From an uncultured Bacteroidaceae bacterium (GTDB lineage Bacteria > Bacteroidota > Bacteroidia > Bacteroidales > GCA-2748055): DNA of 64,000 nucleotides. The stretch covers positions 14,082-78,081 of the forward strand of contig CAZIIU010000013.1 in NCBI GenBank assembly GCA_964539395.1. The letters are read 5' to 3'. The notes beneath the pieces were generated by a model. It made no database searches, was not told where the DNA came from, and saw nothing but the letters and a program-made list of their open reading frames with translations. Of this stretch, positions 1-30,257 are shown one piece after another (the first letter of the stretch is position 1; the number at the start of each line of letters is the position of its first letter). Made by a program: the position numbers and the translations under genes.

Positions 1-3000
1 TACATCCCGCATTCGAAGTAAACATAAAGGTGATTTTATTTACCCCCACATCGCCCATTGTCGGTTCAAAACTAAAACCCAGAATTTCATTGCCAAAAAC
101 CCCGGTACCACTAAATGTGAAACTTCCACCTGTATTTGGAGCAGCTTCGAGGGCAATTGAGGATCCATCCCTGCATATCTCTCCGGGAATGGCTTTGCTG
201 AATGAAATCTCCCTGATAAAGTCAAACTCGAGCTGCTCTTCAACGGTTATAACCTCACTCTTCCATACATATTCGTAAGTAACCTTATAGCTGGCAGATT
301 TCTCCGGGAGCCTTGAAGGATCAACAAGGGCCACGTTATCATTCGGATCAGCATCAATGATCGCATCCGGAACCGGAATTTCATCATCTCTTTCAATCAG
401 GAATAAATTAAAACTTCCTGTCAATCCGTCAACATTGGTTCCTGAAATCTCGAAAACCGGATCATTATAGCAAATAATACCTTCCCTGTCGACATCCGGG
501 TATACAATGGTTAATCCACCACTGGTAGGAAGCACAGTGAAATAGACAGTGTCTCTGCCAATACACCCTGTAGCCGGATCCTGGTAAGTATATCCGATGG
601 TGTGATCCATAGTATCCGTCACCCCGGCGATTGCCGGATAAAACCTGCCCTCGGAAGGCACAACACCCGGTCCGCTAAACAGACCGCCTGTTGGTGTCGC
701 CTGCAGGACATAAGAACCCCCACCCTCCGCAGCAAATACTTTTCTGATCGTTGGTGAAAACTTTGGTTCCGGAAGCGGATTAACGGTAACATCAACACTT
801 ACTGTATAAAAACCTGTCAATCCAAGCGCATCCTGAACGCTATGAAGGAGGTAAGTCCTGTCAGCTGAGGGCGACACCCTAACTGTCAGCTCATTACTAA
901 CACCTGAATAGATGCCGTATTCAGAACCATCTTCATACAACGTCACTTCATAAGGGGCCATTCCCCCGGAGATTACAATGAACAATTCCACCGTATCTTC
1001 TTCACACATAACTCCGCCTCCAAAAATATCAGCCTGGGGCGTTGTAGTAACTATAGCAACATCTTTACTGGAGATAATCCCGGAATATTCAGCTTGGTTT
1101 CCGGCAGGATCCATTAAAACAAGAGTAATATCCAGGTTTCCTGCATCAACTTCCCTGTCACCCGCTCCGACTTCATATCTTAATTCATATAAGTTTCCGC
1201 CAGTCGGAACAAGCATAACCCTTCCTGAGCCGGTCCCGATTTCATTCACAGTGGTCCGGTCTGAAAGCTGGAGCCCTGATTCACCGGTTGTAACTGTATA
1301 TACTATAACATCTCCCGGTATAGCTATACCACCTGAAGTCTCTTCAACAGAGGTAATTAACGGAGAATTGGCATCGATAACGGGATGAACCCCTGAGTAG
1401 CTCGTAACGGGTACACTGCTGTTCCCAACTCCATCAAGTAGAACAATATTTAGTGCCATTGGTAATGGGGGAACTACATCCGGATTTCCCTCTGTTATCT
1501 TATAAGTCAATTGGTAAATTCCACTTCCTGCATTATAAACCGATATTGCCGGGTCGGAAAGTGAAACGGTATTGACTGTGCTGTTCGTATGATCGAAGGT
1601 AAGATCTGCTTCGGGTGACTGGATGGTTACAACCAGCGACTCCCCGACTTTATAAATACCGTTGTTGATACTTACAAGGTTAAGAGTGGGTCGTTCTGTA
1701 TCCAGCAGATCGGATGACTGACTGATCGAACCGCTATATTGCAAACCGATATGAGAACCGTTCTGAAGTTGCAGACTCGTGTATGGTATATCTTCACCCG
1801 CATCATACTGGGGATTGCTTCCCTCTGACCCAATATCGAACTTAACCCGGTAAGTTGTTTGATTCACCCTCTCAAGCCCGTATACTGAACGCCCGGCAAT
1901 CGTGCCTCCAATAAGTGTAAACGTCTGTCCCCGGTCATCATTTACACTGAGCGTGGCTGTTACCGTCTCCCCAATTCCCATCCCCACATCGGGTATTGTA
2001 ACTGAATTGATTACCGGATCGATAATAGCAATCACCTCTACCCCGGGAGGTGTACTCGTAAGCGGTGCACTGCCAGACAACTCCGCGGCTTCCACAGACA
2101 TCCTGAAACGCTTATTCTCCGTAAGTGTGTTTTCATGATAGAGTGTAATATTGAGTTCATCAGCACTGAAGTAACTAATATCACCATTACTGGCAATATT
2201 GAGTACTGCTTCATCAAAAGGATCCCAGGTGAAACTGAAATTGTTCCTGTCAAAAGTGGTGTTGAACCATGTCTCTTCAATAAGCTTTACATTCAGTATT
2301 GCTCCGCTTAAAACTGAAGAGTTGATCGGACTCACTGGAACCGTTTCAATAACCATTGAAGGTTCGATCCGGCTGATTGAAGCAAAATTACCTGTTAAAA
2401 CACTGCTGCTACTGTTTGTCATTGCCGATGCAGGAACAGTGTACGAAACCTCTGCATTGGCAGTAATATCAAATCCGGGCAAAGCCGGAACAGTGATTGT
2501 TACAATATTTCCGGAGACATCTGTATTTGTGGCGCCCCTGTCGGAACCAAGAATTGCATCCTCCAACTCAGACGGATCCTGTGACGCTGAAAATGTGAGA
2601 CCCCTGACCAGGTCTCTGTTGATATTGTGGTCTGTGCCCAACTCTGAAACCCAACTGTCTTCATTCAGAGTAAGTGATATCTGGTAACTATTTGTCCGTA
2701 TCTCACCCTCTCCAACACCATCAAATGTGGCAAATCCGGTAATTGTTACTGGTTCAGGCATGATTGTTTTAACTTCCGGGGCCGTGTAAGTGCCTAATGA
2801 CGTATGCTGCAGATCAGCTGCCACAACAGTCACTTCAACTATTTCAGTTGACGTGATATCAAACCCGGGTGTACCGGGTATTGTAACAGTAACTACCGTT
2901 GCACTGGTCCTTGAAATGGTAAGGTTTGGGGTGATTTGTGTATCCCAGTTACCACCGGAAACGATCCTGTCGCGAAAATCAGTAGGTAATGTTGTCTCCC

Positions 3001-3520
3001 ATTGATCCCCGGTAAGGACAATCTCAAAGTTAATCGAACCTGAACGGATTGATGCCTCCGTATATGATTCATTGTCAATTGAAATGGAAGGATCCTCGTT
3101 GCTAATACTGATATCGGGTACTGCAGTAATATCCAGACCCCCCGATTTTAATGAGGCTGAGGGGACATAAAAAGTAATGGTTTCATCTGCATCTATATAA
3201 TATGCCTCAAATACCGGTATACTAATTCTTGCTACTGTGTCACTTTCCTCAAGGGTAACATTAGATGCATCAAGTGAGGCGACAAGGTCAACCCAGGCCG
3301 CACTCCCTCCGCTCATTCCAGCAAGAAAAGCAGCTGCATCCGTATCTGAACTTCCAACCTCCGAAAGCAACGTGTCGCCGGTAAGCGTAATAACAATTTC
3401 ATTGCTACCGGCCCTGATATCTGATTCGCTGGAAAAGGTATAGGTAAGTGTTGCAGACTGACTAAAAACAAACGGGGCAGACAGTGTCATTAAAAAGATA
3501 GGAAGAATCCTGGTTCTCAT
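1..3520 (-). CDS. Giant secreted cell-surface protein with repeated Ig-like/beta-sandwich modules (N-terminal ~1173 aa; 3' end lies outside the window)
   Basis: The minus-strand frame is open from ATG at 3518-3520 to the window edge, so it is absent from the ORF track, which needs a stop. Hand translation starts MRTRILPIFLMTLSAPFVFS/QSATLTYTF (signal peptide). A module repeats with ~130-aa period (VTIPGTPGFDIT encoded ~2850-2890; ITVPALPGFDIT encoded ~2460-2500). A GGLFSGPGV...GYTYQDPATGC block (~560-700) is typical of Bacteroidota giant adhesins. It lies 20 nt downstream of the preceding gene. Confidence 0.7.
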   Translation of the reverse strand, partial: MRTRILPIFLMTLSAPFVFSQSATLTYTFSSESDIRAGSNEIVITLTGDTLLSEVGSSDTDAAAFLAGMSGGSAAWVDLVASLDASNVTLEESDTVARISIPVFEAYYIDADETITFYVPSASLKSGGLDITAVPDISISNEDPSISIDNESYTEASIRSGSINFEIVLTGDQWETTLPTDFRDRIVSGGNWDTQITPNLTISRTSATVVTVTIPGTPGFDITSTEIVEVTVVAADLQHTSLGTYTAPEVKTIMPEPVTITGFATFDGVGEGEIRTNSYQISLTLNEDSWVSELGTDHNINRDLVRGLTFSASQDPSELEDAILGSDRGATNTDVSGNIVTITVPALPGFDITANAEVSYTVPASAMTNSSSSVLTGNFASISRIEPSMVIETVPVSPINSSVLSGAILNVKLIEETWFNTTFDRNNFSFTWDPFDEAVLNIASNGDISYFSADELNITLYHENTLTENKRFRMSVEAAELSGSAPLTSTPPGVEVIAIIDPVINSVTIPDVGMGIGETVTATLSVNDDRGQTFTLIGGTIAGRSVYGLERVNQTTYRVKFDIGSEGSNPQYDAGEDIPYTSLQLQNGSHIGLQYSGSISQSSDLLDTERPTLNLVSINNGIYKVGESLVVTIQSPEADLTFDHTNSTVNTVSLSDPAISVYNAGSGIYQLTYKITEGNPDVVPPLPMALNIVLLDGVGNSSVPVTSYSGVHPVIDANSPLITSVEETSGGIAIPGDVIVYTVTTGESGLQLSDRTTVNEIGTGSGRVMLVPTGGNLYELRYEVGAGDREVDAGNLDITLVLMDPAGNQAEYSGIISSKDVAIVTTTPQADIFGGGVMCEEDTVELFIVISGGMAPYEVTLYEDGSEYGIYSGVSNELTVRVSPSADRTYLLHSVQDALGLTGFYTVSVDVTVNPLPEPKFSPTIRKVFAAEGGGSYVLQATPTGGLFSGPGVVPSEGRFYPAIAGVTDTMDHTIGYTYQDPATGCIGRDTVYFTVLPTSGGLTIVYPDVDREGIICYNDPVFEISGTNVDGLTGSFNLFLIERDDEIPVPDAIIDADPNDNVALVDPSRLPEKSASYKVTYEYVWKSEVITVEEQLEFDFIREISFSKAIPGEICRDGSSIALEAAPNTGGSFTFSGTGVFGNEILGFSFEPTMGDVGVNKITFMFTSNAGC

Positions 3521-3540
3521 GTGTTAAGTTTTACTGTTTG

Positions 3541-4728
3541 TTAAAGACCACCGCGGGCATCTGTCTTAATCAATGTGATCAGCGTATTCCCTCCCTGTGA
3601 ACTCGAACCTGTAATAATCAAACCTCCATCTGCCGAAGTGTCAATAGACCTGCCTGTCTGGTTTCCTGAACCGCCAAATAATACCGGTTGCTCAATCTTT
3701 TTTCCTTCACCGTCAAGCAGCACCAGGCAAATATTCATATTTTCATTTTCCTCACGTGTTCCTACAATCGCAATCTCTCCCCCGGAATTGATCGTACAGT
3801 CTTCACCTGTTAAGTCTGCTCCCGGCTCTGAAATGGTTGCAAGCTTACTGACATTACGGATCTGGTTCTGAGTAAGTGAAAAAGTATATACCTGAATCTC
3901 ATTCAGGCCTGTAACTGTATTTTCCGTATAACCCATTGCAAGGTAGCCATCGTTGTATCTGACAATCGCACGGGCTATTTCATCATCGTTGGTCCCCATT
4001 ACCTTCGTATCAATCAATCCGCATTCTTCATTTATATACATGAGAAACAGATCCGTTCCATCCAGTGCACCTTCGTCATAAGTAGATGCACAGAGATAAC
4101 CCGATTCTGTTTCGATGAGATAATTAGCCTCATCATCGTCATCCCTGGCAGACCCGTTCAACTCATGCAAAAACACCCCGTCTTCATCCAACATAACTAT
4201 CCAAAGATTTTCATCCTCATCGGTTGTTTTTTTCCCAGCCAACACAAAACCCCCGCTTTTTCTCTCAACAACATGAAAAAGATCATCATCCTCATCTCCA
4301 CCGAGCCTCCGGCTCCACATTTCGTTCCCGGCAGCATCAGTGCGCACAACAAATATGTCTGTCTGAAATTCACCGTCTGATGTGGTGTCTGCAAGATTAC
4401 CCCCAAGAAGAAATCCATCCTCAAGAACAAGCAGGGCGTTTCCTGCAGTACGATATTGATTTCCAAAATAATACGGAGACCCCTCCACCTGATTTCCTGC
4501 TTCATCGGTTATTATCAGTACCATCTTTGCAACGGAATCGGGGACAATCGTTCCCGTTATTGCATAGCCGCCCGAGGGAAGTGCTTTAACATCCCTCCCT
4601 GCATCATTCAGAAAGCTTCCGTAGAACTTGACAAAAGAGCGTTTTTGTATCTCCGAAAGGTCATCAGTACATGTAACTAACAGGGCCGAAAAAAGCAGCA
4701 AAAGCAGATATATTAATCTGAATTTCAT
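3541..4728 (-). CDS. Probable lipoprotein with beta-propeller-like repeats
   Basis: 395-aa ORF. The N-terminus MKFRLIYLLLLLFSALLVTC has a signal peptide with a Cys lipobox-like site. Blocks of the form GGY/GGF..xG.....D..l...D..G...W recur about 6-7 times. There is a 1-nt gap to the upstream gene. No family name recognised. Confidence 0.65.
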   Translation of the reverse strand: MKFRLIYLLLLLFSALLVTCTDDLSEIQKRSFVKFYGSFLNDAGRDVKALPSGGYAITGTIVPDSVAKMVLIITDEAGNQVEGSPYYFGNQYRTAGNALLVLEDGFLLGGNLADTTSDGEFQTDIFVVRTDAAGNEMWSRRLGGDEDDDLFHVVERKSGGFVLAGKKTTDEDENLWIVMLDEDGVFLHELNGSARDDDDEANYLIETESGYLCASTYDEGALDGTDLFLMYINEECGLIDTKVMGTNDDEIARAIVRYNDGYLAMGYTENTVTGLNEIQVYTFSLTQNQIRNVSKLATISEPGADLTGEDCTINSGGEIAIVGTREENENMNICLVLLDGEGKKIEQPVLFGGSGNQTGRSIDTSADGGLIITGSSSQGGNTLITLIKTDARGGL

Positions 4729-4729
4729 T

Positions 4730-5800
4730 TTAGTGATCTATCTTTTTTGGATTATATACCGGAAGCATGAAACCAACAGAAAAACCCAGGCTGTTCATAG
4801 TAAAATTATCACTCACATAAAGGATATCCCATGGAAGCTTTCCTTCAAATCTGCCACTTGTCTTTACCTGGTTTTGCAGGTTCAGGCAATACCTGGCATC
4901 CAGAAAAAACTCCCCCGGTCCGAGTTTATATTTTAACCCAACACCTGCATAAGTCAGAAGGGAAAATGTCTTTCTGGCAGGCAATATGTCTTCATTTACA
5001 ACACTTACCGGGTTATATCTAAATGTGCCGGTGGTTGAATAGTCACGTGTTCCATCGGCTGTAGCAGCGATTAATATGCACGGACTGACACCAATTGAAA
5101 TAAAAGGTTTGAAATCTCCCTCTGCAAATGCATAGCTCAACCCAACAGGCAGTGCCATTCTGTTTTGTGTCTCGTTGTACCCGATAATTGAAAAGTCTGT
5201 TATATCCCCTGTAAAAGCTCCAGGATCTGATTCATTTTCCAGGGTATATTCATACCTGCTGGACATAGATAAGAACTCACCGGAAAGATAAAGCCCGGGG
5301 CCGATCCTCTTATCCAGACGAAAAGAAACATTGATGCCGACTCCTCCGGGTACATAACTACCCGGATGATTCACAAAGTCATGCGTTCCCATCCGGCCAG
5401 TGTTATGAACAACCGGAAATGAAAAATTAATACCAAAACTTCCCCCTATCAATAATACGGGCCTCGTATCATAAGTTTCCATCAGCTTCAAAAACTCCAG
5501 GGGATCTGTTGCAACCGGCTCATACGATGGAAATTCATTTAAGAATCTGAGCATGGTGGCATCCGCCTCTTCATAGTTGTCATCAAAGAGGTATGAGAGA
5601 ATGACCAGTTTATAGGCCTGGATTTTCTCTTCCGCCCTTAAACCGCTCTCGATACATCCGGCCAGTTTCTCCGGGACCGACTCGATCAATCCGGCATTAA
5701 ACATCTCCTGAGCCTCCTCAAGAATGAAGGAACATCCGTCCTGGGATGAAACATTACCGCTGAGAGCAATCAGAAGCAGCAAAGGTAAAAATCTCTTCAT
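4730..5800 (-). CDS. Secreted protein with an N-terminal TPR-like helical region and a C-terminal outer-membrane beta-barrel
   Basis: 356 aa. Signal peptide MKRFLPLLLLIALSGNVSS/QD. About 90 aa of helical sequence follow (EEAQEMFNAGL...YEEADATMLRFLNEFP). The rest has the alternating hydrophobic/aromatic pattern of small OM barrels. It overlaps the upstream gene by 4 nt (ATGA). Confidence 0.65.
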   Translation of the reverse strand: MKRFLPLLLLIALSGNVSSQDGCSFILEEAQEMFNAGLIESVPEKLAGCIESGLRAEEKIQAYKLVILSYLFDDNYEEADATMLRFLNEFPSYEPVATDPLEFLKLMETYDTRPVLLIGGSFGINFSFPVVHNTGRMGTHDFVNHPGSYVPGGVGINVSFRLDKRIGPGLYLSGEFLSMSSRYEYTLENESDPGAFTGDITDFSIIGYNETQNRMALPVGLSYAFAEGDFKPFISIGVSPCILIAATADGTRDYSTTGTFRYNPVSVVNEDILPARKTFSLLTYAGVGLKYKLGPGEFFLDARYCLNLQNQVKTSGRFEGKLPWDILYVSDNFTMNSLGFSVGFMLPVYNPKKIDH

Positions 5801-8800
5801 CGTTTGATTGTTTCAGTAACTAATATCGGACATGTTTCCGCATAATCTATATCATCGCCTATATAGAGGTCCCATTCTTCCCTTGTAAAATTCCTGTGTA
5901 TCATTCCACAAAATCCATCAGCGAGTTGTCCTGCTGTCACCGGTCTGGATTTCAAATTATTGCTGCCGCTTACAAGGTATTTTTCATCCGGGCTGAATAC
6001 AACAGTAAAGACAAAGCCACGGTTATCTTCCATTACAATCGGGGAAAGGTTCAGGTTCTTCATATCCCACATGAGGACCTTTCCGTCATAACTGCTGGAA
6101 GCAAGGTAATTGCTGTTCGGACTGAACCTAACAGTCTCAATACGGGCTGAACTACCCCTTAGGCTATGTGTCTGAGTCCAGCTTTTCGTTTCAAACAACC
6201 GAACGATTCCTCGTTGGTCGCCTGCAGCCAGATACTTTCCGTCAAAGCTGAAATCGAGCGAAATCACAGGATTCTGAACAAAGCCGGATATCGTATCTCG
6301 CATTTCAGGCTGTGTAGCCTGAATTAATACAATCATACCTGATCTGTTAGTCGCTGCGAGGATCTGTCCTCCCGGGGATAGCGCGATATCATCGAAACGT
6401 ATTTCTGAATGAGCAATTTGCCTGCTGGTCCCCGTCTCAATATTCCATTTCAGGATTTGCCTGTCGGAGCCTAATGAATAGAACTCTCTGGAGTCTTCGG
6501 TGAAAAGAATATCACTTACCCTTCCTTCATGACCGGTAAACAGAATAACGTCATTTTCCGGACCCGACAAATCATGGATGTGAATTCCGGCAGTCAGTGT
6601 TCCTACTGCAAGGTATCGTCCATTCGGACTTATAGAGAGTGCCTCAATGATCATCTCCTTTTCCGATACAACTACTGGCTCCACACCGGGTTCATTCATC
6701 GAAAAAGAGAGGATCCTGCCATCACTGCCGGCGCTAATAAACTGGTTTGTCCCTGGTTTAAAAACCACAGATTTTACTGACTGAATATGGCCACCGAATA
6801 CATTGTGCTGGTCGCCCAGCAATACCTTTCGGGCATCATAAAGACCCGAATAAACATCGGCCTCATGCATTTCACCTCCATACTCCATATTGTAAAGGTA
6901 GGCCTGAAAGGCCAGCAGTGCTTTCAGGTCGGGGTCATCATTTTTGTCGATCTGCAATGATTTTACAGCCATTGATTTTGCTATGGAAAGCATCCTGCGC
7001 TTGTAAGCCTCCTCACTGGCCTTAACAGCACGAAGTCGCTGCAGCTCCGCAGTATCGGCATTTGCCTGTGCAAGCGCTTCTGCAGCCTTCGCAGCCCTGG
7101 CACTCTCATCGGCAAGTCGCTGCCTGCTTTGTGCCAGTTCAGTTGCCCGTTCCGCCTCAAGCCTTCGCTGTTCTGCAAGGCTAGAGGCTATCACGGCGCG
7201 TTCCCGCTCGACATTTGCAGAATCCCTTGCTATAATTGCAGCTTCTTCCTGTTTTTTAGCCTCTTCTTCGTTTTGAAGAGCAAGCTCCCGTTGCTCCTCT
7301 GCCTCAATCCTCCTTGCTTCTGCCTGACTTTGAAGATCACGTGTCCAAAGAAAAAGTCCCATGGCAATGACGGCGATTCCCCCCAGCACCAGGCTGAATA
7401 TCCTGGTTACTTTCAACCTCCGACGCTGCAAACGTATCTTGTTCTCCTCTTCTTTCCTGAATTCTGAAGCACTTGTATCCAGAAAAACCATCGATCTTTC
7501 AAAAGCCGGATGGTACTGGACCGCCCAGGTAAGCGTGGGTTGTTGCATTTCACGCCAGTTAAGTGCCAACTGCAAGTCGGGGGGCCTCCATAAACCCGCT
7601 GTACCCGCCTGATAAAGCGCCGCTGCCTCTGAAAGTCTCCTGTACATCTGAACAGAAGAGGCCTCCTCATCCACCCAAAACCTCAGCCTGTCCCAGATAC
7701 GCATCAGGGATTCGTGAGATATATCAATCACACTCCCATCATTCAGCTCAACCGGCGCATAAGGTGTAAGAAAGGTTCTGCTGCCACTGCGGAAGACATC
7801 AGCAATCCTGATGATCTCCCCTGGAGTACACCTTGAAATTTCAGCAATTCTCTTAACCCCTGCAGGTCGTCTCACTCCCCGGTTATCGCCGCCCTTCTCT
7901 GTAATGGTTTTAAAAAGGCGCTCACAGATCATACGTTGGTTTTCATCCAACTCTTCGTAAGCCTCGTTGGCGTGATCCGACAAAGCCTTCTCCATCCTTC
8001 CGATGGCCTCATAATCACCTTTTGAAATTGCCTTTTGAGGATCATTCTGTAACATCCAGTAATCCCAGGTGCGCATGAGTGAGTGTTGCAAAACAGGAAG
8101 CTGATCCGTATTATCACCGATTTCATCAAGTAATTGCTCAACAAGTTCTGAATCGATATTGGCACCGCCCACCTTCACAGGTCCTTCTATAGCCCTCCGG
8201 AAGTCATCCCTGGTCATCTGGGGAATCAAATAATTACTTTGGTTAATAAGGGTTGTAAGATCCTGGTATACGGAACATTCTCCTATAAAATCAGATCGCA
8301 TGGTAAGCACAACACTAATCACATCCGGCCCGTTTGTACATGCATCGTGGATCAATTCAACAAACCTGTTGACATCCCCATGCTCAGTAGTTATTGTCCT
8401 TGAACTTCCGTAACGAAATATCTCTTCGAACTGATCAATAATAAGTAATAACTTTTGACCAGCAGGAAGAATTTCCCTAATCCATTCTTGAATAGAGAGT
8501 TTACCTGACAATAATCGCTCATGAATGTCTTCAGTGTCGCTTTTTTCGGACAATAGTGATATTGCACCTGCCAGGTTTCTGACCGGATTTATACCCGGTC
8601 TGGCCGAAACAGGTATCCAGTCATTCTCACTATCCGTCCTTAGAGCAGGAATAACCCCACAATAGATCAAAGAGGATTTCCCACTTCCCGAAGCTCCAAT
8701 GACTGCAACGAAATGGTTTGCCTTCAATGAACTCAGAACTGATATACTCTGTCCCTCCCTGCCAAAAAAGAGATGTGATTCATCCTGCCGAAAAGGTCGA

Positions 8801-8853
8801 AGACCTGGAAATGGATTGAAAACTGCATCGGAATGGCCGGGTTTATTGCTCAT
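5797..8853 (-). CDS. STAND-type P-loop NTPase, single TM helix, long coiled coil, WD40 beta-propeller
   Basis: 1018 aa. Motifs: FNPFPGLRPFRQDESHLFFGRE, Walker A GASGSGKSS (aa 53-61), Walker B LLLIIDQFEE. Hydrophobic segment IFSLVLGGIAVIAMGLFLWT at aa 484-503. E/A/R/Q-rich coil at aa ~505-620. WD40-like blades at aa ~685-1010 (e.g. GHIQSVKSVVFKP...SAGSDGRILSF; GHEGRVSDILF...SLGSDRQILKWN). Confidence 0.85.
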   Translation of the reverse strand: MSNKPGHSDAVFNPFPGLRPFRQDESHLFFGREGQSISVLSSLKANHFVAVIGASGSGKSSLIYCGVIPALRTDSENDWIPVSARPGINPVRNLAGAISLLSEKSDTEDIHERLLSGKLSIQEWIREILPAGQKLLLIIDQFEEIFRYGSSRTITTEHGDVNRFVELIHDACTNGPDVISVVLTMRSDFIGECSVYQDLTTLINQSNYLIPQMTRDDFRRAIEGPVKVGGANIDSELVEQLLDEIGDNTDQLPVLQHSLMRTWDYWMLQNDPQKAISKGDYEAIGRMEKALSDHANEAYEELDENQRMICERLFKTITEKGGDNRGVRRPAGVKRIAEISRCTPGEIIRIADVFRSGSRTFLTPYAPVELNDGSVIDISHESLMRIWDRLRFWVDEEASSVQMYRRLSEAAALYQAGTAGLWRPPDLQLALNWREMQQPTLTWAVQYHPAFERSMVFLDTSASEFRKEEENKIRLQRRRLKVTRIFSLVLGGIAVIAMGLFLWTRDLQSQAEARRIEAEEQRELALQNEEEAKKQEEAAIIARDSANVERERAVIASSLAEQRRLEAERATELAQSRQRLADESARAAKAAEALAQANADTAELQRLRAVKASEEAYKRRMLSIAKSMAVKSLQIDKNDDPDLKALLAFQAYLYNMEYGGEMHEADVYSGLYDARKVLLGDQHNVFGGHIQSVKSVVFKPGTNQFISAGSDGRILSFSMNEPGVEPVVVSEKEMIIEALSISPNGRYLAVGTLTAGIHIHDLSGPENDVILFTGHEGRVSDILFTEDSREFYSLGSDRQILKWNIETGTSRQIAHSEIRFDDIALSPGGQILAATNRSGMIVLIQATQPEMRDTISGFVQNPVISLDFSFDGKYLAAGDQRGIVRLFETKSWTQTHSLRGSSARIETVRFSPNSNYLASSSYDGKVLMWDMKNLNLSPIVMEDNRGFVFTVVFSPDEKYLVSGSNNLKSRPVTAGQLADGFCGMIHRNFTREEWDLYIGDDIDYAETCPILVTETIKR

Positions 8854-8872
8854 AGAATCATGTTTTTAATAT

Positions 8873-10918
8873 CTAGAGTCTAACGCCAATTACCAGTATG
8901 TCATCAACCTGGGGCTCATCACCCATCCAGTCCTTAATCTCACGTTCAAGCATGCCATACTGTTCATTCATCGGATGACTGGCAATTTGTTGAAGGAGTT
9001 TTACAAACCGGCCTGTCATATACTTACCGCCTTTCTCCCCGCCAAACTGATCGGCATACCCATCTGAAAAAATATAGATCATATCACCTTCTTCATAGGT
9101 AAAGGAATGATTCGTAAAACTCTTTTTGATCTCAATAATATGTCCACCGATCGGTATACGGTCTGCCTTGTATTTTACCAATTCACCATTGCGTACAAGA
9201 ACCAGCGGATTAAATGCACCGGCAAACTGCACAAGTTTCTTTTTCCTATCGATAGTTACCATGGCCAGATCCATTCCATCCTGAACAGATTCATTCTTTG
9301 TCTGCCGGAGGGTAGCAGTAACCCCTTCATCGAGAATCCTGAGTATTTCCGAGGGTTGTGTTTCATTCTCCACATTCAGTGCATAGTTCAGCTGGTTGTT
9401 TCCTACTATCGACATAAACGCTCCAGGAACACCATGCCCTGTGCAATCGACTGCCGAAACAATCAACTTGCCGTTTTTTGCGGCTACCCAATAGAAATCT
9501 CCACTCACTATATCACGTGGCTTATAAAAGAAAAATGCATTCGGTATGATCCTCTTCAAATAATCATCCGGGGGCAATATTGCTTTCTGAATTCTGCTTG
9601 CATAATGTATACTGTCTTCAATCTCATTATAGGCCCTCTGAAGCGAGTCATTGGCTTTAGACAACATGTTTCTCTGCTCCTCCAGTGTATCACGCTGCGC
9701 CTCTATCTCCTCTTTCTGAACCACCACTTCAGCGGTACGATCCTTCACTTTTTGCTCCAGTTCATTGTAGTAGCTCTCCAACTCGGCTATCATGTTGTTG
9801 AATTGCTCCGACAGTGATGCGATCTCATTGTTCCCTACCACCTCAGCCCGTTCATTCAGGTGTCCGGCAGTGATCCGGTTGACATTCGAAACGAGTCGCT
9901 TAATGGGATCGGTGATCACTTTGGTTTTCCTGTAAAGCAGAATAACGACGATCACAACAGTAACGGAGAACAGCAGTATGAACTTAAACAGTTCCCGCCT
10001 TAAGATGGTCCTCTCTTCAGTGGTATCTGATATGATTCGAATGACGGATTCCTTATAAAGACTCGTATTTTTTCGGTCCAGATAAATAAAATCGCGCCTA
10101 ACAGGTGGTTTTGACCGGGGGTCATCCAGGGTAACCCTCTCTTTCGATTCCATTACCTTCCTGTAGGTCGATGCAAACTCATCCTCAATGGTGGCATCAC
10201 CATTCAGGCACAATGGATTATCCATGCCGATAAAAAGATCAACAGAGATAATATTGGTACGCATCGCTGCCATGTTGTTCATCCGCTTCTTCACGAAATC
10301 AATAATACTGTCTGCCTGGTCAGAATATATCCCCAATTCAATCAGGTACCTGCCATCGAGGGTTGGAATGTAGGTGAACTTCTTCAGACGCTTGGTTGAA
10401 TTCTCAATGGTAAACTTCTCACTCAGAAACTCCCCGCTCTCCCATACATGCTCAAGCATCTCTTTATGTTCCATACCAAATTCAAAAAAATTCAGACCAA
10501 GGTCGGGCTTAAACGTTGTATTTACTACTACACCATCCCTGTTGATTACATAGATATCCTGGTTCTCGCAGTCCATACCTATGCGCTTTTGAACAGCCGA
10601 CAGATCAGTCGTCTCAATATTTTTCGTATCCCTGAATACTTCATTAACGAGAATCTCGCTGTACCGCTTCAGGTCAGGGTCAATCTGCTTATCCAGGATC
10701 CGCATGGCCATATCCTGCATCTCATGAATCTGCTTGATCTCCTCACTGATAATCTTACTTTTACTCTTACTCGATTCTTCAAGAATGCTCCAGGTCTGCC
10801 GGACATTAATAATACCCAGAGCCAGCAGAGCCAGTATCGCCGGAATAACAACATTCAGAATCAACTGCTTAAATATCGTAGTACGCTTTCTCAAAGTAAG
10901 TTTTAATTCGTTTTCCAA
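8873..10918 (-). CDS. Membrane sensor PP2C/SpoIIE-family Ser/Thr phosphatase (TM, periplasmic Cache-like domain, TM, HAMP, coiled coil, PP2C)
   Basis: 681 aa. TM1 is ILNVVIPAILALLALGIINV. About 270 aa of extracytoplasmic domain follow. TM2 is FILLFSVTVVIVVILLY. HAMP-like PIKRLVSNVNRITAGHLNERAEV. PP2C motifs SGDFYWV, DCTGHGVPGAFMS, FSDGYADQFGG, DDILVIGVRL. Its start overlaps the upstream stop by 16 nt. Confidence 0.85.
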   Translation of the reverse strand: MENELKLTLRKRTTIFKQLILNVVIPAILALLALGIINVRQTWSILEESSKSKSKIISEEIKQIHEMQDMAMRILDKQIDPDLKRYSEILVNEVFRDTKNIETTDLSAVQKRIGMDCENQDIYVINRDGVVVNTTFKPDLGLNFFEFGMEHKEMLEHVWESGEFLSEKFTIENSTKRLKKFTYIPTLDGRYLIELGIYSDQADSIIDFVKKRMNNMAAMRTNIISVDLFIGMDNPLCLNGDATIEDEFASTYRKVMESKERVTLDDPRSKPPVRRDFIYLDRKNTSLYKESVIRIISDTTEERTILRRELFKFILLFSVTVVIVVILLYRKTKVITDPIKRLVSNVNRITAGHLNERAEVVGNNEIASLSEQFNNMIAELESYYNELEQKVKDRTAEVVVQKEEIEAQRDTLEEQRNMLSKANDSLQRAYNEIEDSIHYASRIQKAILPPDDYLKRIIPNAFFFYKPRDIVSGDFYWVAAKNGKLIVSAVDCTGHGVPGAFMSIVGNNQLNYALNVENETQPSEILRILDEGVTATLRQTKNESVQDGMDLAMVTIDRKKKLVQFAGAFNPLVLVRNGELVKYKADRIPIGGHIIEIKKSFTNHSFTYEEGDMIYIFSDGYADQFGGEKGGKYMTGRFVKLLQQIASHPMNEQYGMLEREIKDWMGDEPQVDDILVIGVRL

Positions 10919-13900
10919 TGAATAAACCTGGCTGCATCAGCAGTACTGAAGAAGCGGTGGCAAACCAACCTTAATTCCGGCAAATCAAACAATAACTCCC
11001 TGAACACCTTTCTCTCTATCTGGTAAAACCGGAATTCAGGATGAGATGCAAGATAATCCATTTGTCCCAAAATTGCGGGATAGTCGGTAAGGTTTATTAC
11101 TACTCCCTCTGAAAGCAGGTTTTCTATCGCACTACCGGACTTCATAATAGACACATAATCAGGCCTATCCGTGGATATGTAAGAATTACCGATAAAATTG
11201 GAGGCAAATTTATAAATCGTCTCCCGCTCAAGATCACTAAATAATTTCCAGCTTTTAAGCTCTTCAACAACCTCAATGATTCCTGAACCAAATGATGGTA
11301 CTTCAGCAGGTCCTGCTATACTTTCATCACTATAAACTCCTTCTATCCTTTTTACAATATCAGTGTATAGTTCTTTATCCTTAGTTGCCAGAACATGCGA
11401 TGCGGTTTTACTGATAACAGGATCAGGATGAAATACCTGTGCAGCAAGGTACCTTTCTGCATCAACATCAATACTTCTTAACATTTCAATTGCACAAATG
11501 CGCAAATAACTTCCTGTATAAAGACCATCCCTGTTCATCAAATCAATCAGCAACTTTTCATATGAACTGATCTCCACTGGCATTTCATTTTGCAATCTCC
11601 TGATCTTTTCAGGCACGGAAAGAGCATCATAATAGGGCTCGAGGTAGGCATAGACCTGGTCATCAACAATCAGGTTCATTAGTTCAAGGGCATAGCCTGC
11701 ATCTTCATTGTCTTTATCTTCAATGCTCTGTTGTACATGACCAATGACACTTCTGTCATATGCGATCCCCAACAGGTTAAAAATAAGATGGTCCGTGCGC
11801 TTTCTCTCCTCTGCAATGGCCCCATACAAGTCGTTCCCGGGATCATTCTCCCTTATGACAAATTCTGCTGCTATGTTCATTGCACCGGCAAGTACTGCCT
11901 CATAGACCAGATCAAGCAGAACCAATTTCTGCTGTTCATCAGGATGATAATTGTATATGTATAATCCACGAATGGCTGCCTCCCTCACATCCCTCTGAAA
12001 ATAACTGATCTTATCGAACAAGAGATCTTTCGCACGCTGACTTCCGATTGAAATCATGGCCCGAACAATTCTTAATCGCACGATCTCCTCGACTCCCGAC
12101 TTGTGAAAGGCATTTTCCAGGTGACCCAGAACCAGATCACCCATATCCACCAGTGCCGACCAAGCTGCTGTATACAGATCGGGGTGTCCAAGATAATCCA
12201 CCAGGTAACTGCCAATCTGCTTAACTTTCAGTTTTCCTGCAGCCTCAATGGCAGCAATCCGAATCTGCATGTCCCGGTCCCGGAGAAGCGATATGATATT
12301 TGGAAGCTGACCCTCATCACGCAGTTCAACAGTTTGCAACAACGAAGCAAGTACCCTGTTCCTGTCGGACGTCCTGAAATGCTCTGAAATCTTTTTCCCC
12401 GGGAGATTCAACCGTTCTTTATATGCTAATATGATTTCTCTGAGTTCCTCATCCTTACTACTTTTCAGAGCACTCTCCACAATTTCGTCAGGGCACCGGT
12501 ACAAGGTGCCTGAAATCAACTTCCATGCAACCTTTCTCTTCTCTTCATCAGAAGCACCAAGAAGATGGTTCAGCTGATCATGATCAGTCTGATGATAGAA
12601 ATAGGGATCCAGCCGGATCATCTCACGATACATCGAAGCCTCTGATACATTCTCTTCCTGGGACTGTACATTGGAAACATCCATCGTTTCGGCAGCCCTG
12701 GCAGTTGCCAAAGATTCGTTTAATGTCCTGCGATACAACCTGTACAGCGACAGCCCGAGTATGACCCAAATGACAAGCAGAGCTATTAGTATATAGGAGA
12801 AATGGATAACCTGAATAAAACTCAGAAATAATAAGCCAGCCATTATCAGTCCGGCTGCAAAGGCTGTAAATTCATTGACAATCCCATCAATTTTTGCCTG
12901 GATATCAAACCGCTCACCAGAATCGATCGATTGGTAAAGTATTTTCATTGAAGGACTTTCAATGGCATCCTTAAGCGACTTGTTGAAAAGCTTGGAAAGT
13001 GATATTACCAGGAAAAAAAATGTAAAACTGGCCGCCTCTGCCGTATACCCGAAAAAGCCACCCACAACAGCTGCAATGATCGTTAAAACCAACAACAGTA
13101 CCGGTGAGATCAACAATGAAACTCTGAGACCGTAATTCTTCATCAGCCATCCGTATAGGGTACTTTTTATGACCACAGTAAAGATCATCATCGTACCGAA
13201 AAATGCACCGAGAAAACTTGTCAACTCTCTGCTATCCTCATAATTTGCCTCGGTGGCCCACATAAAGGAATAATGGATAAAAAAGGCGACAATAACGCTG
13301 AGAATTACGAACATCGCCATCATGGAAGTGTATCTCTTTCGGAATATGCTTAAAAAACCTCTGCTTCTTCTTTTTAATTCCGAAGAAATTAAAACTGTCC
13401 CTATACGGTGCTTGTAAAGAACCAGTATTTGAAACAACATTGCAATGATCAGACTTGCCAGGCCGATCAGCAGGGTATTATGTACTTCAAAATTAAATCT
13501 AACCAGCAAGGGTACTGCATAAAAAGCCATGATCATCCCAACGATCGAACCGGTATCGATCACACCAAAGAGCCTCTTTCCCTCCCTGAGTGTAAAGTAC
13601 CTGCCGGCCGTGCCCCAGAATCCCAACAAGCTGATTATGATCAGCGGTCCCATAAATACCAACAGTGCAAATGTTACAACGGGATCATCTGTAATATTAT
13701 ATCCGAGACGAATGATACCGGTCAGAATAATAACCATTAAAAGATTGAGAATCGTAAATAACCCGAAGCGTATCTTTTTCTGGAGATAGGTGTATGCAGA
13801 GGTGAAGAGGATTCCAACGGCACCTGAAATCATGAAGGCGCGGGGCATCATATTAGCACTGTAGGCATCAAGAAATAATGCATTGGCGCCTACGTCCAGG

Positions 13901-14004
13901 GCCCCGGCAAAAATACCAAGAAAAACTGATTGTGTCAGAAGGAGGAATACAACACTTCTTTCATCCTTTTCGATGTTCATCAACTTGGGAATGCTTAGTG
14001 CCAT
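10903..14004 (-). CDS. Fusion protein: ~12-TM MFS/nucleotide-transporter-like domain, HEAT repeats, degenerate cyclic-nucleotide-binding-like C-terminus
   Basis: The ORF track starts at a TTG (14064). I prefer ATG at 14002-14004 (MALSIPKLMNIEKDERS) because a TAATTTTG -7 box sits at 14040-14047, inside the extension. Hydrophobic helices run through aa ~35-445. HEAT-like repeats include LPNIISLLRDRDMQIRIAAIEAAGKL and YLGHPDLYTAAWSALVDMG. The last ~115 aa (LFSDLERETIYKFASNF...YVSIMKSGSAI...) resemble a CNB fold, but I see no FGE or R[ST]A phosphate-binding cassette. Confidence 0.7.
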   Translation of the reverse strand: MALSIPKLMNIEKDERSVVFLLLTQSVFLGIFAGALDVGANALFLDAYSANMMPRAFMISGAVGILFTSAYTYLQKKIRFGLFTILNLLMVIILTGIIRLGYNITDDPVVTFALLVFMGPLIIISLLGFWGTAGRYFTLREGKRLFGVIDTGSIVGMIMAFYAVPLLVRFNFEVHNTLLIGLASLIIAMLFQILVLYKHRIGTVLISSELKRRSRGFLSIFRKRYTSMMAMFVILSVIVAFFIHYSFMWATEANYEDSRELTSFLGAFFGTMMIFTVVIKSTLYGWLMKNYGLRVSLLISPVLLLVLTIIAAVVGGFFGYTAEAASFTFFFLVISLSKLFNKSLKDAIESPSMKILYQSIDSGERFDIQAKIDGIVNEFTAFAAGLIMAGLLFLSFIQVIHFSYILIALLVIWVILGLSLYRLYRRTLNESLATARAAETMDVSNVQSQEENVSEASMYREMIRLDPYFYHQTDHDQLNHLLGASDEEKRKVAWKLISGTLYRCPDEIVESALKSSKDEELREIILAYKERLNLPGKKISEHFRTSDRNRVLASLLQTVELRDEGQLPNIISLLRDRDMQIRIAAIEAAGKLKVKQIGSYLVDYLGHPDLYTAAWSALVDMGDLVLGHLENAFHKSGVEEIVRLRIVRAMISIGSQRAKDLLFDKISYFQRDVREAAIRGLYIYNYHPDEQQKLVLLDLVYEAVLAGAMNIAAEFVIRENDPGNDLYGAIAEERKRTDHLIFNLLGIAYDRSVIGHVQQSIEDKDNEDAGYALELMNLIVDDQVYAYLEPYYDALSVPEKIRRLQNEMPVEISSYEKLLIDLMNRDGLYTGSYLRICAIEMLRSIDVDAERYLAAQVFHPDPVISKTASHVLATKDKELYTDIVKRIEGVYSDESIAGPAEVPSFGSGIIEVVEELKSWKLFSDLERETIYKFASNFIGNSYISTDRPDYVSIMKSGSAIENLLSEGVVINLTDYPAILGQMDYLASHPEFRFYQIERKVFRELLFDLPELRLVCHRFFSTADAARFIHWKTN

Positions 14005-14039
14005 CCTCAGGGAATTTGCAATTAAGGTGCAGCAAAATA

Positions 14040-14047
14040 CAAAATTA
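14040..14047 (-). promoter_or_regulatory. Bacteroidota -7 promoter box TAATTTTG (minus strand) for the six-gene operon
   Basis: Plus strand reads CAAAATTA at 14040-14047, which is TAATTTTG on the minus strand and matches TAnnTTTG. It lies 35 nt upstream of ATG 14004. Confidence 0.4.
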
Positions 14048-14253
14048 TCATTTGAGTGCAGCAATTATTTTTCAAACGATTCAAAAAACCAACTTAAAGC
14101 TGAATAAAATATGACCAATATAAGGAAAAGAACCTGCCAAAACATTGCTTCACTGGATAACTGACCTTAATTTGATGATGAAATTAAACAAATGGCAACC
14201 TTAATTGTAAAAAAAATTAATACTTTTAAAATCAATATTCCAAAAATGAGCTG

Positions 14254-15024
14254 ATGTTCGGTCCGGATGAAGAAGTAGATATCAAAATTGCCCGCCGGCG
14301 CGAATTAGTCTTCATAATTCTATCCGGTATCTTTCTCGGTACACTCGCTGTACTCAATATTCTGGGCCTTTCCAGACAGATTGATCTGTCGTTCACGATC
14401 CGCGGGTGGACTGTGCCTTTTATCGTCTTTATTGGTGTACTCCCCTACCCGATCACATTCCTGTGTACAGACTTTATAAGTGAACTCTACGGAAGACGAA
14501 GGGCCAATACAGTTGTTTGGGTGGGCCTCATACTCAACCTCTGGGTACTTTTTATCCTCTGGATCGGCGGTGTGCTTCCCCCACGGCCTGAACTGGATGC
14601 AAATAACCTGCCAGAGCTGACAGATCCAACCTATAGCTTCTTTTATTTCCGAAAATTAACTGGAATGGCCACAATGGCATCTATGATCGCCTACCTGACC
14701 GCCCAGTTTGTCGACGTGCAGATATTCCACCTCTTAAAAAAACTCACAAAGGGAAAAGCCCTTTGGCTAAGGAACAACGGTTCCACTCTCACCAGCCAGA
14801 TGGTCGACTCAATTGCAGTGATCCTGATTACCTACTCTTTCTCCGACGCGATCCATATCCATCCGGGAGAGACCGTGGCACACGGACTTATGATACTCAT
14901 CTTGTCAAATTATACCTTCAAAATGGTCTCTGCCCTGCTTGACACAATACCTTTCTATATAGGGGTCAAGACCCTTTCCCGCTACCTTCACCTGGATCCA
15001 AATAAAGATTACAGTGGTAAATAA
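14254..15024 (+). CDS. yhhQ: Queuosine-precursor transporter (YhhQ/VUT, DUF165 family)
   Basis: 256 aa and polytopic. The conserved-looking LPYPITFLCTDFISELYGRRRAN segment and the size fit the YhhQ family. It is divergent from the operon above. Confidence 0.75.
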   Translation: MFGPDEEVDIKIARRRELVFIILSGIFLGTLAVLNILGLSRQIDLSFTIRGWTVPFIVFIGVLPYPITFLCTDFISELYGRRRANTVVWVGLILNLWVLFILWIGGVLPPRPELDANNLPELTDPTYSFFYFRKLTGMATMASMIAYLTAQFVDVQIFHLLKKLTKGKALWLRNNGSTLTSQMVDSIAVILITYSFSDAIHIHPGETVAHGLMILILSNYTFKMVSALLDTIPFYIGVKTLSRYLHLDPNKDYSGK

Positions 15025-15127
15025 GGTACATCCGCGTCTCATCATATCATTAGTACCCTTAAATAGTAATGCATTTTATACCCTGTCAAACATACACCAA
15101 AAAAGCAGCTGTCTTATCCAAATTTTG

Positions 15128-15145
15128 TAATTTTGTTTAGCTTTG
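15128..15145 (+). promoter_or_regulatory. Two tandem -7 boxes (TAATTTTG 15128-15135; TAGCTTTG 15138-15145) upstream of the liu-mva cluster
   Basis: Both match TAnnTTTG exactly. They lie 75-85 nt upstream of the TTG start at 15220. Confidence 0.4.
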
Positions 15146-15219
15146 TTTAAACTTTTTTCTGTATCTTTTAAACAAAATCGGATAAAAAGGTGTTAATGAT
15201 AAAATAAAAGCAAAAAAGA

Positions 15220-16827: not shown

Positions 16828-16829
16828 TC

Positions 16830-19605: not shown

Positions 19606-19611
19606 TGAACA

Positions 19612-20763: not shown

Positions 20764-20773
20764 ATAGTCCATC

Positions 20774-21772: not shown

Positions 21773-21777
21773 AAAAG

Positions 21778-24020: not shown

Positions 24021-24065
24021 CAACAGTACGTATAATTAACCGGGTATTAACCAAAAATTATAACA

Positions 24066-25163: not shown

Positions 25164-25269
25164 AATCCGGTTAAACAGGAAACACCAGCAGTTTCGCTGG
25201 TTTTGAAGAAACCGGTCGGTCGGCTGATTGATTTGGAAAAACATTTTAGAATTATCACGTGAGGTAAAA

Positions 25270-30255: not shown

Positions 30256-30257
30256 AA

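Follow-up and report, generated by a model that had tools for sequence, protein, structure and literature searches.

A conserved six-gene cluster of Bacteroidota built around a predicted membrane-anchored STAND NTPase

The first part (1-14047) of a 64,000-nucleotide stretch of DNA from an uncultured Bacteroidaceae bacterium, the window in what follows, carries six head-to-tail open reading frames (ORFs) on the minus strand, which we call g1 to g6 in the order of their transcription. The protein encoded by g3 is a STAND NTPase that we predict to be anchored in the inner membrane, with the NTPase in the cytoplasm and a WD40 propeller in the periplasm, and its neighbours encode a transporter-type protein, a phosphatase, an outer-membrane barrel, a lipoprotein and a very large secreted protein. 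We find the cluster with the same gene order, on one strand and with similarly close spacing, in several orders of Bacteroidota, and its six genes in all likelihood form one functional unit. As to what this unit does, we favour, with a probability of roughly one half, an outside-in trans-envelope receptor in which a complex at the surface and outer membrane would signal through g3 to partners in the inner membrane and the cytoplasm.

Conservation of the gene cluster

The six ORFs follow one another closely. Recomputed from their coordinates, the junctions measure -16 (g1/g2), +19 (g2/g3), -4 (g3/g4), +1 (g4/g5) and +20 nucleotides (g5/g6), with the start of g4 overlapping the stop of g3 in an ATGA; the ORFs and all five lengths agree with a preliminary description of this DNA that had been drawn up from its letters alone. 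That description had proposed a single envelope-spanning module, and had made the conservation of the gene neighbourhood in related genomes the test of it. On the contigs that encode homologues (L001-L003 and L092, with g3 identities of 85%, 58% and 48%), the gene order is that of the window, and between the window and the 85% relative the six proteins are 79-88% identical without a single indel. A wider scan of one genome per species yielded 80 loci in which the g3 orthologue is full-length, at 40-78% identity. They belong to Bacteroidales, Marinilabiliales, Tenuifilaceae, Salinivirgaceae, Cytophagales (Cyclobacteriaceae, Fulvivirga) and Flavobacteriales (Vicingaceae). As far as the length of the contigs allows, tblastn and ORF calling show 79 of these 80 to have the genes in the order g1-(g2)-(x)-g3-g4-g5-g6, all on a single strand, x being a gene for a DUF4062 protein that is discussed below; in the sole exception, L083, g3 stands alone. 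The median gaps are 16 (g1-g2), 26 (g2-g3), 8 (g3-g4), 2 (g4-g5) and 50 nucleotides (g5-g6).

The flanking genes are kept to a different extent. In Bacteroidales, the genes for a Vut_1 transporter and a flavodiiron protein on either side are conserved as well, while Fulvivirga (L081) and Rhodocytophaga rosea (L087) carry the entire cluster, including the giant type IX secretion system (T9SS) protein, between other flanking genes. Order, strand and tight spacing are thus kept across several orders, also amid differing flanks, and the proposal of one functional envelope-spanning module stands.

Three variants of the cluster can be told apart, namely variant A, to which the window belongs and which has g2 only, variant B with both g2 and x, and variant C with x only. 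Their distribution follows the clades of the g3 tree and so points to descent that was mostly vertical, and B is taxonomically the widest. One genome carries the cluster twice: R. rosea (CP048222.1) has two paralogous copies, L087 with the entire gene order and L086 with the first four genes, in the latter of which the DUF4062-like gene was not confirmed. One of the two copies comes with a T9SS protein of 3694 amino acids (aa), and the other adjoins GH18 and Pvc16 genes. Two further contigs with the cluster (L048 and L051) are labelled as metagenome-assembled genomes of Chloroflexota and Thiohalospira; their genes are 42-45% identical to the Bacteroidota copies and stand in the same order, so that these labels are probably binning errors.

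A search with the part of g3 around its membrane helix (aa 400-690: juxtamembrane region, transmembrane helix and stalk) matched 844 cluster representatives (clustering at 50% identity) with E <= 1e-10; at E <= 1e-30 the number is 131. The full-length proteins among these matches are nearly all 1000-1090 aa long, with the segment at a constant position.

The preliminary description did not recognise the gene combination as a described system, and full-text searches (nSTAND1, DUF4062, NTT-HEAT, STAND together with Bacteroidetes, T9SS or periplasmic, contractile injection system together with WD40 or NTPase) found no description of the cluster, nor of a membrane-anchored STAND protein with an external sensor. 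Since each domain belongs to a known family, the cluster is not categorically new.

A STAND NTPase with a predicted periplasmic propeller

All coordinates given here refer to the minus strand, unless the plus strand is indicated. g3 (5797..8853, 1018 aa) begins with an nSTAND1 NTPase module (7606..8814, aa 14-416) that scores 314.4 bits against PF20703, far above the cut-off of 27.1. Its Walker A (GASGSGKSS) and Walker B (DQFEE) residues are invariant in 17 homologues. The module is followed by a single transmembrane (TM) helix (7345..7401, aa 485-503, hydropathy 2.38), by a stalk of about 17 heptads with alanine at one heptad position (6979..7338, aa 506-625) and by a seven-bladed WD40 propeller (5941..6777, aa 693-971), after which comes a conserved tail containing cysteine. 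The propeller scores 98.5 bits in Pfam, and the AlphaFold2 (AF2) model likewise has seven blades, with a predicted local distance difference test score (pLDDT) of about 90. The P-loop STAND NTPase, single TM helix, coiled coil and WD40 domain read from the letters of this ORF are therefore borne out, the coiled coil as one long helix.

The topology of g3 follows from the charges around its TM helix. The 15 residues before the helix carry a net charge of +6 and the 15 residues after it one of -3, and in 76 of 76 orthologues it is the N-terminal side that has the more positive charge. Because of this bias, the positive-inside rule predicts the NTPase to be cytoplasmic and the WD40 propeller to be periplasmic.

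The stalk has the alanine repeat in essentially every one of its ~17 heptads. Its median length among orthologues is 117 aa, with minor classes of 110, 124 and 131 aa, which differ by whole heptads. Despite this fixed length its sequence is poorly kept, with a mean identity of 32%. The AF2 model has a single uninterrupted helix between aa 451 and aa 634. If the stalk were a single straight helix, it would reach about 17-19 nm, and we infer that the propeller would then lie near the inner face of the outer membrane.

Structure searches add little to the assignment of g3, since generic WD40 matches dominate the Foldseek result with its model and the NTPase part is uninformative. Of the many matches to WD40 families in Pfam that stay below threshold, one is to the second propeller of TEP1 (35 bits, cut-off 89). 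Many g3 orthologues of cultured strains bear the name 'High-affnity carbon uptake protein Hat/HatR' at NCBI, which is very likely a misannotation, a legacy from a cyanobacterial WD40 protein.

Outer-membrane and surface components

The gene directly after g3, g4 (4730..5800, 356 aa), encodes a protein with a signal peptide, a helical N-terminal domain with two cysteines and a small outer-membrane beta-barrel. The barrel matches the Pfam family OMP_b-brl_2, as it does in 41 of 49 orthologues, so that the earlier assignment as an outer-membrane barrel holds. It is of the small OmpA/OmpW class, without a plug. The N-terminal domain is conserved, and C23 and C49 are invariant among the orthologues. 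A profile search of g4 against the PDB gave nothing significant, and a barrel of the PorP/SprF type was considered and rejected, as none of the 49 orthologues has such a Pfam match. At one locus (L019, 9992-14107) the g3 frame continues through g4, giving 1371 aa, either as a real fusion or as an assembly error.

g5 (3541..4728, 395 aa) has a lipobox and encodes a beta-propeller whose family profile matches the propeller of CylK (PDB profile search, E 6e-34); DUF5122 is found in 6 of 51 orthologues. The preliminary description had placed this lipoprotein in the periplasm. While its lipobox and propeller are confirmed, the placement is doubtful in view of the acidic motif that follows the lipidated cysteine (C-TDDLSE). 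Orthologues have aspartate or glutamate at +2 in 25 of 56 cases and lysine at +3 in 21 of 56, and acidic residues are common at +4 and +5, which amounts to a motif like C-[D/E]-K-[D/E]-[D/E]. The lipoprotein export signal of Bacteroidota has been defined experimentally as C-X-K-[DE]2-X, or as SDDDD or SDDFE in type (PMC5080379). Since the motif in g5 resembles this signal, g5 is probably exposed at the surface rather than periplasmic.

Only the beginning of g6 lies in the window (1..3520, encoding the N-terminal 1173 aa of a large, secreted protein), since the gene continues past the left edge. Its signal peptide ends in ...FVFS|Q, and both g4 and g6 would expose an N-terminal glutamine after cleavage. 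This part has no significant Pfam match. The giant surface protein with Ig repeats that had been proposed is thus confirmed as large and secreted, and the repeats and the secretion signal are seen in its orthologues only. These are 1870-3700 aa long and have PKD/Ig-like domains and also, at the C-terminus, a conserved membrane-proximal region of some 700 aa, part of which is Omp28-like. All 19 aligned orthologues end in a T9SS type A signal (Por_Secre_tail / TIGR04183), and the one in the 85% relative (L092) has 1904 aa and a Por_Secre_tail domain.

Inner-membrane partners

g1 (10903..14004, 1033 aa) consists of an NTT-type transporter domain with the MFS fold (12691..13968, aa 13-438, 6+6 TM helices), a HEAT or all-alpha solenoid (11332..12672, aa 445-891) and a C-terminal domain resembling those that bind cyclic nucleotide monophosphates (cNMP; 10906..11286, about 125 aa). 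The AF2 model (pLDDT 81.9) has 12 TM helices in a 6+6 arrangement and finds its best Foldseek match in AtNTT1 (9j3l, TM-score 0.76), while a PDB profile search leads to NTT1 (E 1e-14); the membrane domain is closest to the ATP/ADP translocators AtNTT1 and C. pneumoniae NTT1. In Pfam, HEAT_2 is matched by the window protein (41.9 bits) and by 43 of 46 orthologues, MFS_1 by 21, and TLC and cNMP_binding by 8 each. The window's g1 by itself falls below the TLC model, which is seen in close homologues, and NCBI names such homologues 'Npt1/Npt2 family nucleotide transporter'. NCBIfam has no match for g1, nor for g3, g4, g5 or g6.

The C-terminal domain is clear at the level of the family, where it matches the cNMP-binding domains of PKG and PKA (PDB profile search, E 6e-16), and degenerate in the window. 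There it is shortened and mostly helical, with three short strands in the AF2 model, and it lacks the canonical phosphate-binding residues Glu and Arg, of which the Arg is found in no g1 orthologue examined. With this proviso, the three parts of g1 are those that had been proposed.

g2 (8873..10918, 681 aa, with a TTG start) has two TM segments (aa 19-37 and aa 310-328) with a conserved periplasmic domain of some 270 aa between them, followed by a HAMP domain, a coiled coil and a PP2C catalytic domain (8879..9475, aa 482-680). Pfam recognises HAMP and SpoIIE (the latter with 64 bits), and the aspartate motifs that bind the metal are invariant in 41 orthologues. Against the PDB, the catalytic domain matches a SiaA-type phosphatase (6k4e, P. 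aeruginosa) at E 1.5e-62. The SiaA equivalog model NF038263 gives 248 bits, below its cut-off of 700, with the C-terminal part alone aligned. Both TM segments, HAMP and PP2C had been predicted and are found; the name Cache for the periplasmic domain is rejected, as this domain has no Pfam or PDB profile match. It had also been said that this PP2C lacks a STAS-type substrate or a kinase as a partner, and there is indeed none among the six genes or in their flanks.

Transcription and chromosomal setting

Strand switches bound the unit at both ends. On the 5' side, the divergent Vut_1 gene lies at 14254-15024 (+), and on the 3' side g6 is followed immediately, in the 85% relative L092, by a flavodiiron gene in convergent orientation. 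The six genes are probably co-transcribed, in agreement with their spacing and with these switches. The frame of g1 is open up to a TTG at 14064 (ORF 10903-14064), its likely start being the ATG at 14004. A candidate promoter, TAATTTTG, which matches the Bacteroidota -7 motif, is found at 14040..14047, 36 nucleotides 5' of this ATG, where the preliminary description had seen a TAnnTTTG box. The further claim that this box is the only one on its strand does not hold, as there are 10 minus-strand matches within 1-14047, and the number in the whole window (43, with 45.9 expected) is at chance level. Related loci have the motif within 150 nucleotides 5' of g1 in 10 of 52 cases, compared with a background of 6%, and its strict form is also seen before x in 6 of 40 loci and before g6 in 4 of 28. 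Likewise too strong was the statement that the cluster contains no hairpin followed by a T-run. A simple scan gives several weak candidates on the minus strand, 14 where 12.0 +/- 3.7 are expected, all of them inside ORFs; since this is the number due to chance, they are no evidence for an internal terminator. With both counts at chance, the scans neither favour nor oppose a single transcript. An Rfam scan of 1-15200 on both strands (E <= 1) detected no RNA family, and no riboswitch in the 250 nucleotides between g1 and the divergent Vut_1 gene. The Vut_1 (YhhQ-type) transporter gene adjoins g1 in most Bacteroidales loci, usually in divergent orientation; in three loci (L061, L069 and L080) it lies on the strand of g1, 21-107 nucleotides upstream.

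The window as a whole is an ordinary piece of chromosome, with genes of leucine catabolism and the mevalonate pathway and those for FTHFS, ParE/ParC, cytochrome bd, Obg, RecJ and a tRNA synthetase. A run at 15220-26196 (+) encodes leucine catabolism (carboxyltransferase, enoyl-CoA hydratase, biotin carboxylase, acyl-CoA dehydrogenase) and, after it, the mevalonate pathway (HMG-CoA reductase, diphosphomevalonate decarboxylase, GHMP kinase); within it, the ORFs at 20774-21772 and 23103-24020 have no Pfam match. The stretch 29395-34560 (-) encodes the extracytoplasmic function (ECF) sigma factor FecI, FecR, a TonB-dependent receptor with an STN domain and a DUF4249 protein. The FecIRA set proper is at 30258-34560, and a pair of TonB-dependent receptor and DUF4249 genes is also found near the cluster in L001. 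Finally, a protein of 661 aa encoded at 49730-51715 (-) matches DUF4914 over its full length (962 bits).

Sister clades and distant relatives

Outside the window's clade, the gene x enters the cluster. In variants B and C it lies directly before g3, with a median gap of 1 nucleotide or with its stop overlapping the g3 start, and its product, about 460-490 aa long, has a DUF4062 domain in the middle and a weak resemblance to TIR domains in the N-terminal part. A metagenomic protein of 1373 aa (P0404) is a natural fusion of the two, its aa 4-343 matching the x profile (E 1.6e-43) and its aa 361-1373 the g3 profile. The window's clade has no x; there g3 begins with the NTPase, and the gap between g2 and g3 is 19 nucleotides.

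According to 2026 preprints, DUF4062 is a TIR-like NADase that serves as the effector in Avs2, Swarozyc, Vulcan and Vesta, and is also part of human TEP1, NWD1 and NWD2, with the layout DUF4062-NACHT-WD40. In a PDB search, the DUF4062 protein of the cluster gives marginal TIR matches (E ~0.08). The cluster's DUF4062 proteins have an S-x-x-[E/D]-x-Q motif after a YG strand, with the Gln near-invariant. Judged by its domains, the family thus contains the effector-NOD-repeat layout of NLR proteins. The preliminary description had held that neither NLR-type nor partner-switching logic applies to the cluster, and this does not extend to its relatives: x adjoins or is fused to the STAND protein in sister clades, which makes NLR-type logic possible for the family, and a Runella locus described below has STAS, RsbW-like and SpoIIE genes. 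For the window the underlying observation is correct, since g3 has no effector domain in Pfam and none is encoded next to it.

The cNMP-binding domain of g1 varies along with x. Its core has the full length of 95-97 aa in the variants with x, whereas two of the three clades that lack x have a shortened core with a median of 81 aa; although these observations are not phylogenetically independent, they hint that the domain works together with x.

More distant relatives show other partners. On plasmid records there are only three, two in Persicobacter (replicons of 405 and 859 kb) and one on an 88-kb plasmid of Runella, and as these are all distant, an origin of the cluster from a mobile element was rejected. 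The Runella rosea plasmid (NZ_CP030852.1, L084) has a g3-like gene with 30% identity and the same TM helix and Ala-heptad stalk. STAS, anti-sigma-antagonist and RsbW-like genes lie upstream of it, and downstream there are genes for a TonB-dependent receptor, a GNAT protein, a g1-like protein, a histidine kinase and a SpoIIE phosphatase. The N-terminus of this TonB-dependent receptor resembles the N-terminal domain of g4 (E 1e-4).

In Persicobacter, the g1-g3 pair lies inside the locus of a contractile injection system (CIS). A search seeded with the Persicobacter protein led to cultured carriers among the Cytophagales. In this subfamily, whose members are ~36-37% identical to the window's g3, a g1-(x)-g3-g4 module adjoins CIS genes in all six loci looked up: L085 (Persicobacter psychrovividus pPP2), L088, L086, L089, L090 and L091. 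The carriers are Persicobacter psychrovividus, Persicobacter diffluens, Rhodocytophaga rosea (its second copy), Mangrovivirga, Aureibacter and Roseivirga, and the CIS neighbours are sheath, tube, Pvc16 (Pvc16_N), tape-measure, GH18 or AAA genes. CIS genes beside clusters of the window's type were looked for and rejected, since neither the window nor the 80 nearest loci contain a CIS marker. g1 and g3 are therefore the constant pair, and it is their outer partners that vary.

A proposed trans-envelope receptor and its alternatives

In the receptor that we propose, g3 would be the hub, a STAND protein of the inner membrane with its NTPase in the cytoplasm and with a stalk that carries the WD40 propeller across the periplasm. 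The propeller would contact the periplasmic, helical N-terminal domain of g4, and g4, the probably surface-exposed g5 and the T9SS-delivered g6 of about 1900 aa would together be the outward-facing part. A change at the surface or in the outer membrane, be it binding, load or damage, would alter the clustering or the oligomeric state of g3, and this altered state would switch the cytoplasmic NTPase. The NTPase may then act on its neighbours in the inner membrane, on g1 in every variant and, in the window's clade, also on g2, which would have an additional input through its own conserved periplasmic domain. In the sister clades, the DUF4062/TIR-like protein would occupy the effector position of an NLR. 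The choice of g4 as the partner on the outer-membrane side is supported by the conservation of its two-Cys domain, which in Runella is found on a different barrel adjoining the g3-like gene, and the invariant Walker A/B and PP2C metal-binding motifs predict that both enzymes are competent.

A number of points weigh against this receptor. Known STAND proteins have their repeat sensor fold back on the NTPase within the same compartment; this is impossible across a membrane, so that g3 would need another mechanism of activation. It would be unusual for a WD40 domain to be exported to the periplasm behind a signal-anchor helix, and the topology of g3 is predicted from hydropathy and charge bias alone. 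The stalk has a low pLDDT (~50) in the AF2 monomer model, and an alanine at each seventh residue would also fit an antiparallel 'Alacoil' hairpin, which would halve its reach. The window's cNMP-binding-like domain is degenerate, and g2 has no recognisable substrate, whether STAS domain or kinase, in the cluster. Although g1, g2, g4 and g5 diverge in step with g3 (Pearson 0.81-0.88), as the genes of one unit would, shared phylogeny alone would have the same effect. The promoter motif is weakly enriched 5' of g1 in relatives, and its occurrence before x and g6 in some loci makes internal promoters possible. Finally, every contact in this receptor, like the direction in which it signals and its output, is our inference.

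One may go further and regard periplasm-spanning STAND proteins as an unrecognised class of trans-envelope NLR-like receptors, which would sense the outer membrane and surface through a complex of barrel, lipoprotein and T9SS protein, would have outputs centred on nucleotides or NAD (through the DUF4062 protein and the NTT-HEAT-cNBD protein, i.e., NTT transporter, HEAT solenoid and cNMP-binding domain) and on the phosphatase, and would in Cytophagales control the CIS, for example through regulated lysis, release or firing on contact. Such a class would also give the widespread, uncharacterised NTT-HEAT(-cNBD) proteins their first functional context. We advance this generalisation tentatively, as a possibility that we would not ourselves bet on.

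The alternative that survives best, though we consider it unlikely, is that the cluster is an NLR-like system of conflict or regulated cell death with an extracytoplasmic sensor. Its WD40 propeller would detect an invader or a breach of the envelope, as in phage adsorption and injection or the attack of another cell, and the STAND NTPase would then oligomerise and set off a toxic response, namely the breakdown of NAD+ by the DUF4062 protein where there is one, and leakage of the membrane or of nucleotides through the NTT-HEAT protein, the window's clade being a derivative that has lost the gene of the NADase family. It is in keeping with this idea that nSTAND1 was defined as a clade of STAND proteins in counter-invader systems (PMC8195603), that DUF4062, the NADase effector of anti-phage systems, is encoded upstream of g3 or fused to it, and that the transporters of the NTT family carry ATP/ADP and in some cases NAD (PMC5381601). 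So is the adjacency of the sister subfamily to CIS genes, and also the cNMP-binding-like domain of g1, which is full length with x and shortened in two of three clades without it. However, the window itself has no DUF4062 gene, and PADLOC matched no protein to any defence model, returning noise-level matches only. The cluster lies between housekeeping genes in conserved synteny and not in a defence island, its descent appears mostly vertical, and the relatives on plasmid records are all distant. The motif S-x-x-[E/D]-x-Q in the cluster's DUF4062 proteins leaves the catalytic Glu putative. Nor is the sensor hypervariable: between the window and its 85% relative, the WD40 part of g3 is 82.5% and the NTPase part 84.1% identical, without indels. 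Such equal conservation of WD40 domain and NTPase is not what a fast-evolving immune sensor shows, though the cluster may have a role in surveillance.

Somewhat less probable still is a structural role, in which g3, g4 and g5 would be a trans-envelope scaffold, a bridge of fixed length that anchors, positions or assembles a large surface machine in the manner of TssJ-TssL-TssM in the T6SS (type VI secretion system). The machine served would be the giant T9SS protein in the window's clade and the CIS in the Cytophagales subfamily, where CIS genes adjoin the module in six of six loci looked up. The stalk, with its 117 aa and steps of 7 aa, indeed looks like a ruler. The combination of an outer-membrane barrel, an outer-membrane lipoprotein and a periplasm-spanning NTPase of the inner membrane resembles the TssJLM layout, and the g6 orthologues share a conserved membrane-proximal C-terminal region beyond generic repeats. 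On the other hand, STAND NTPases are switches and not known as structural anchors, and a HAMP-PP2C protein with a periplasmic input domain and TIR-like proteins are parts of signalling systems. CIS markers are absent from the window and the 80 nearest loci, and general searches, none of them aimed at these proteins, turned up no similarity to TssJ, TssL or TssM. That the genes are independent neighbours without a common function, kept together by slow genome rearrangement, is strongly disfavoured and in our view hardly credible: the conserved Vut_1 and flavodiiron flanks in Bacteroidales mean that part of the conservation is plain synteny, but the cluster is kept in Cytophagales and Flavobacteriales despite different flanks, its gaps are a few nucleotides or overlaps, its content varies only by the clade-wise presence of g2 and the DUF4062 gene, and there are a natural DUF4062-g3 fusion and two paralogous copies in R. 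rosea.

In bacteria, plants and animals alike, STAND/NLR proteins are regarded as sensors inside the cell. If the trans-envelope receptor that we favour is real, a repeat sensor held outside the cytoplasm on a stalk fixed in heptads, and linked to outer-membrane and surface partners of its own, would be a new use of the STAND switch and a new way for Gram-negative bacteria to signal from the outside in across their envelope. The cluster is widespread in environmental Bacteroidota, and cultured carriers among the Cytophagales (Fulvivirga, Rhodocytophaga, Roseivirga, Aureibacter and Persicobacter) make its study in culture possible. It bears on the function of NTT-HEAT-cNBD proteins, on the roles of DUF4062/TIR-like proteins outside mobile defence islands, on the purpose of huge T9SS surface proteins and on how the CIS of Cytophagales are controlled or anchored.

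Relation to known systems

The NTT-HEAT-cNBD architecture has been described as widespread and functionally uncharacterised (Major, Embley & Williams 2017, PMC5381601). The family of g1 has exactly the same three parts, of which the third is in the window a degenerate cNMP-binding-like domain, and that paper connects the architecture neither with STAND NTPases nor with an operon of this kind. g2 is likewise built as the phosphatases SiaA (of SiaABCD), RsbU and SpoIIE are, with TM segments, HAMP, coiled coil and PP2C. The window's cluster differs from SiaABCD and partner-switching systems in having no STAS-type substrate, kinase or diguanylate cyclase.

With the TssJ-TssL-TssM complex, the cluster shares the pairing of a periplasm-spanning NTPase protein of the inner membrane with an outer-membrane lipoprotein, and its sister subfamily lies beside CIS genes. 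No homology turned up, in searches that were not dedicated to it, and the window's locus is without contractile-injection genes. The logic of FecA-FecR-FecI and of RcsF-OMP-IgaA is shared by analogy only, in that an outer-membrane barrel with a periplasmic N-terminal domain would pass a signal to a periplasm-spanning protein of the inner membrane and on to a cytoplasmic output; instead of a TonB-dependent transducer, anti-sigma factor, ECF sigma factor or phosphorelay, the cluster has a STAND NTPase.

Human TEP1, NWD1 and NWD2 have the same order as the fused bacterial protein P0404, from a DUF4062-like domain through a STAND NTPase to WD40. They use NACHT, whereas the bacterial g3 uses the nSTAND1 clade of NTPases, and the bacterial proteins differ by the TM helix and stalk, and in the window by the absence of a DUF4062 gene; the competence of the bacterial DUF4062 proteins as NADases is putative. 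With the STAND/NLR-like proteins of bacteria (nSTAND1 proteins, Avs, bNACHT), g3 shares the nSTAND1 NTPase, intact Walker motifs and a C-terminal WD40 domain, and its sister clades have a TIR-like DUF4062 module in the effector position, adjacent or fused. g3 departs from them by the TM helix and the stalk of ~117 aa between NTPase and sensor, and by a sensor that is predicted to be periplasmic and not cytoplasmic. Its family further differs in its setting, with a window copy that has no effector and a sensor that is not hypervariable, in a fixed operon of six to seven genes that includes outer-membrane and secreted partners and that has its place in the core chromosome, with mostly vertical descent.

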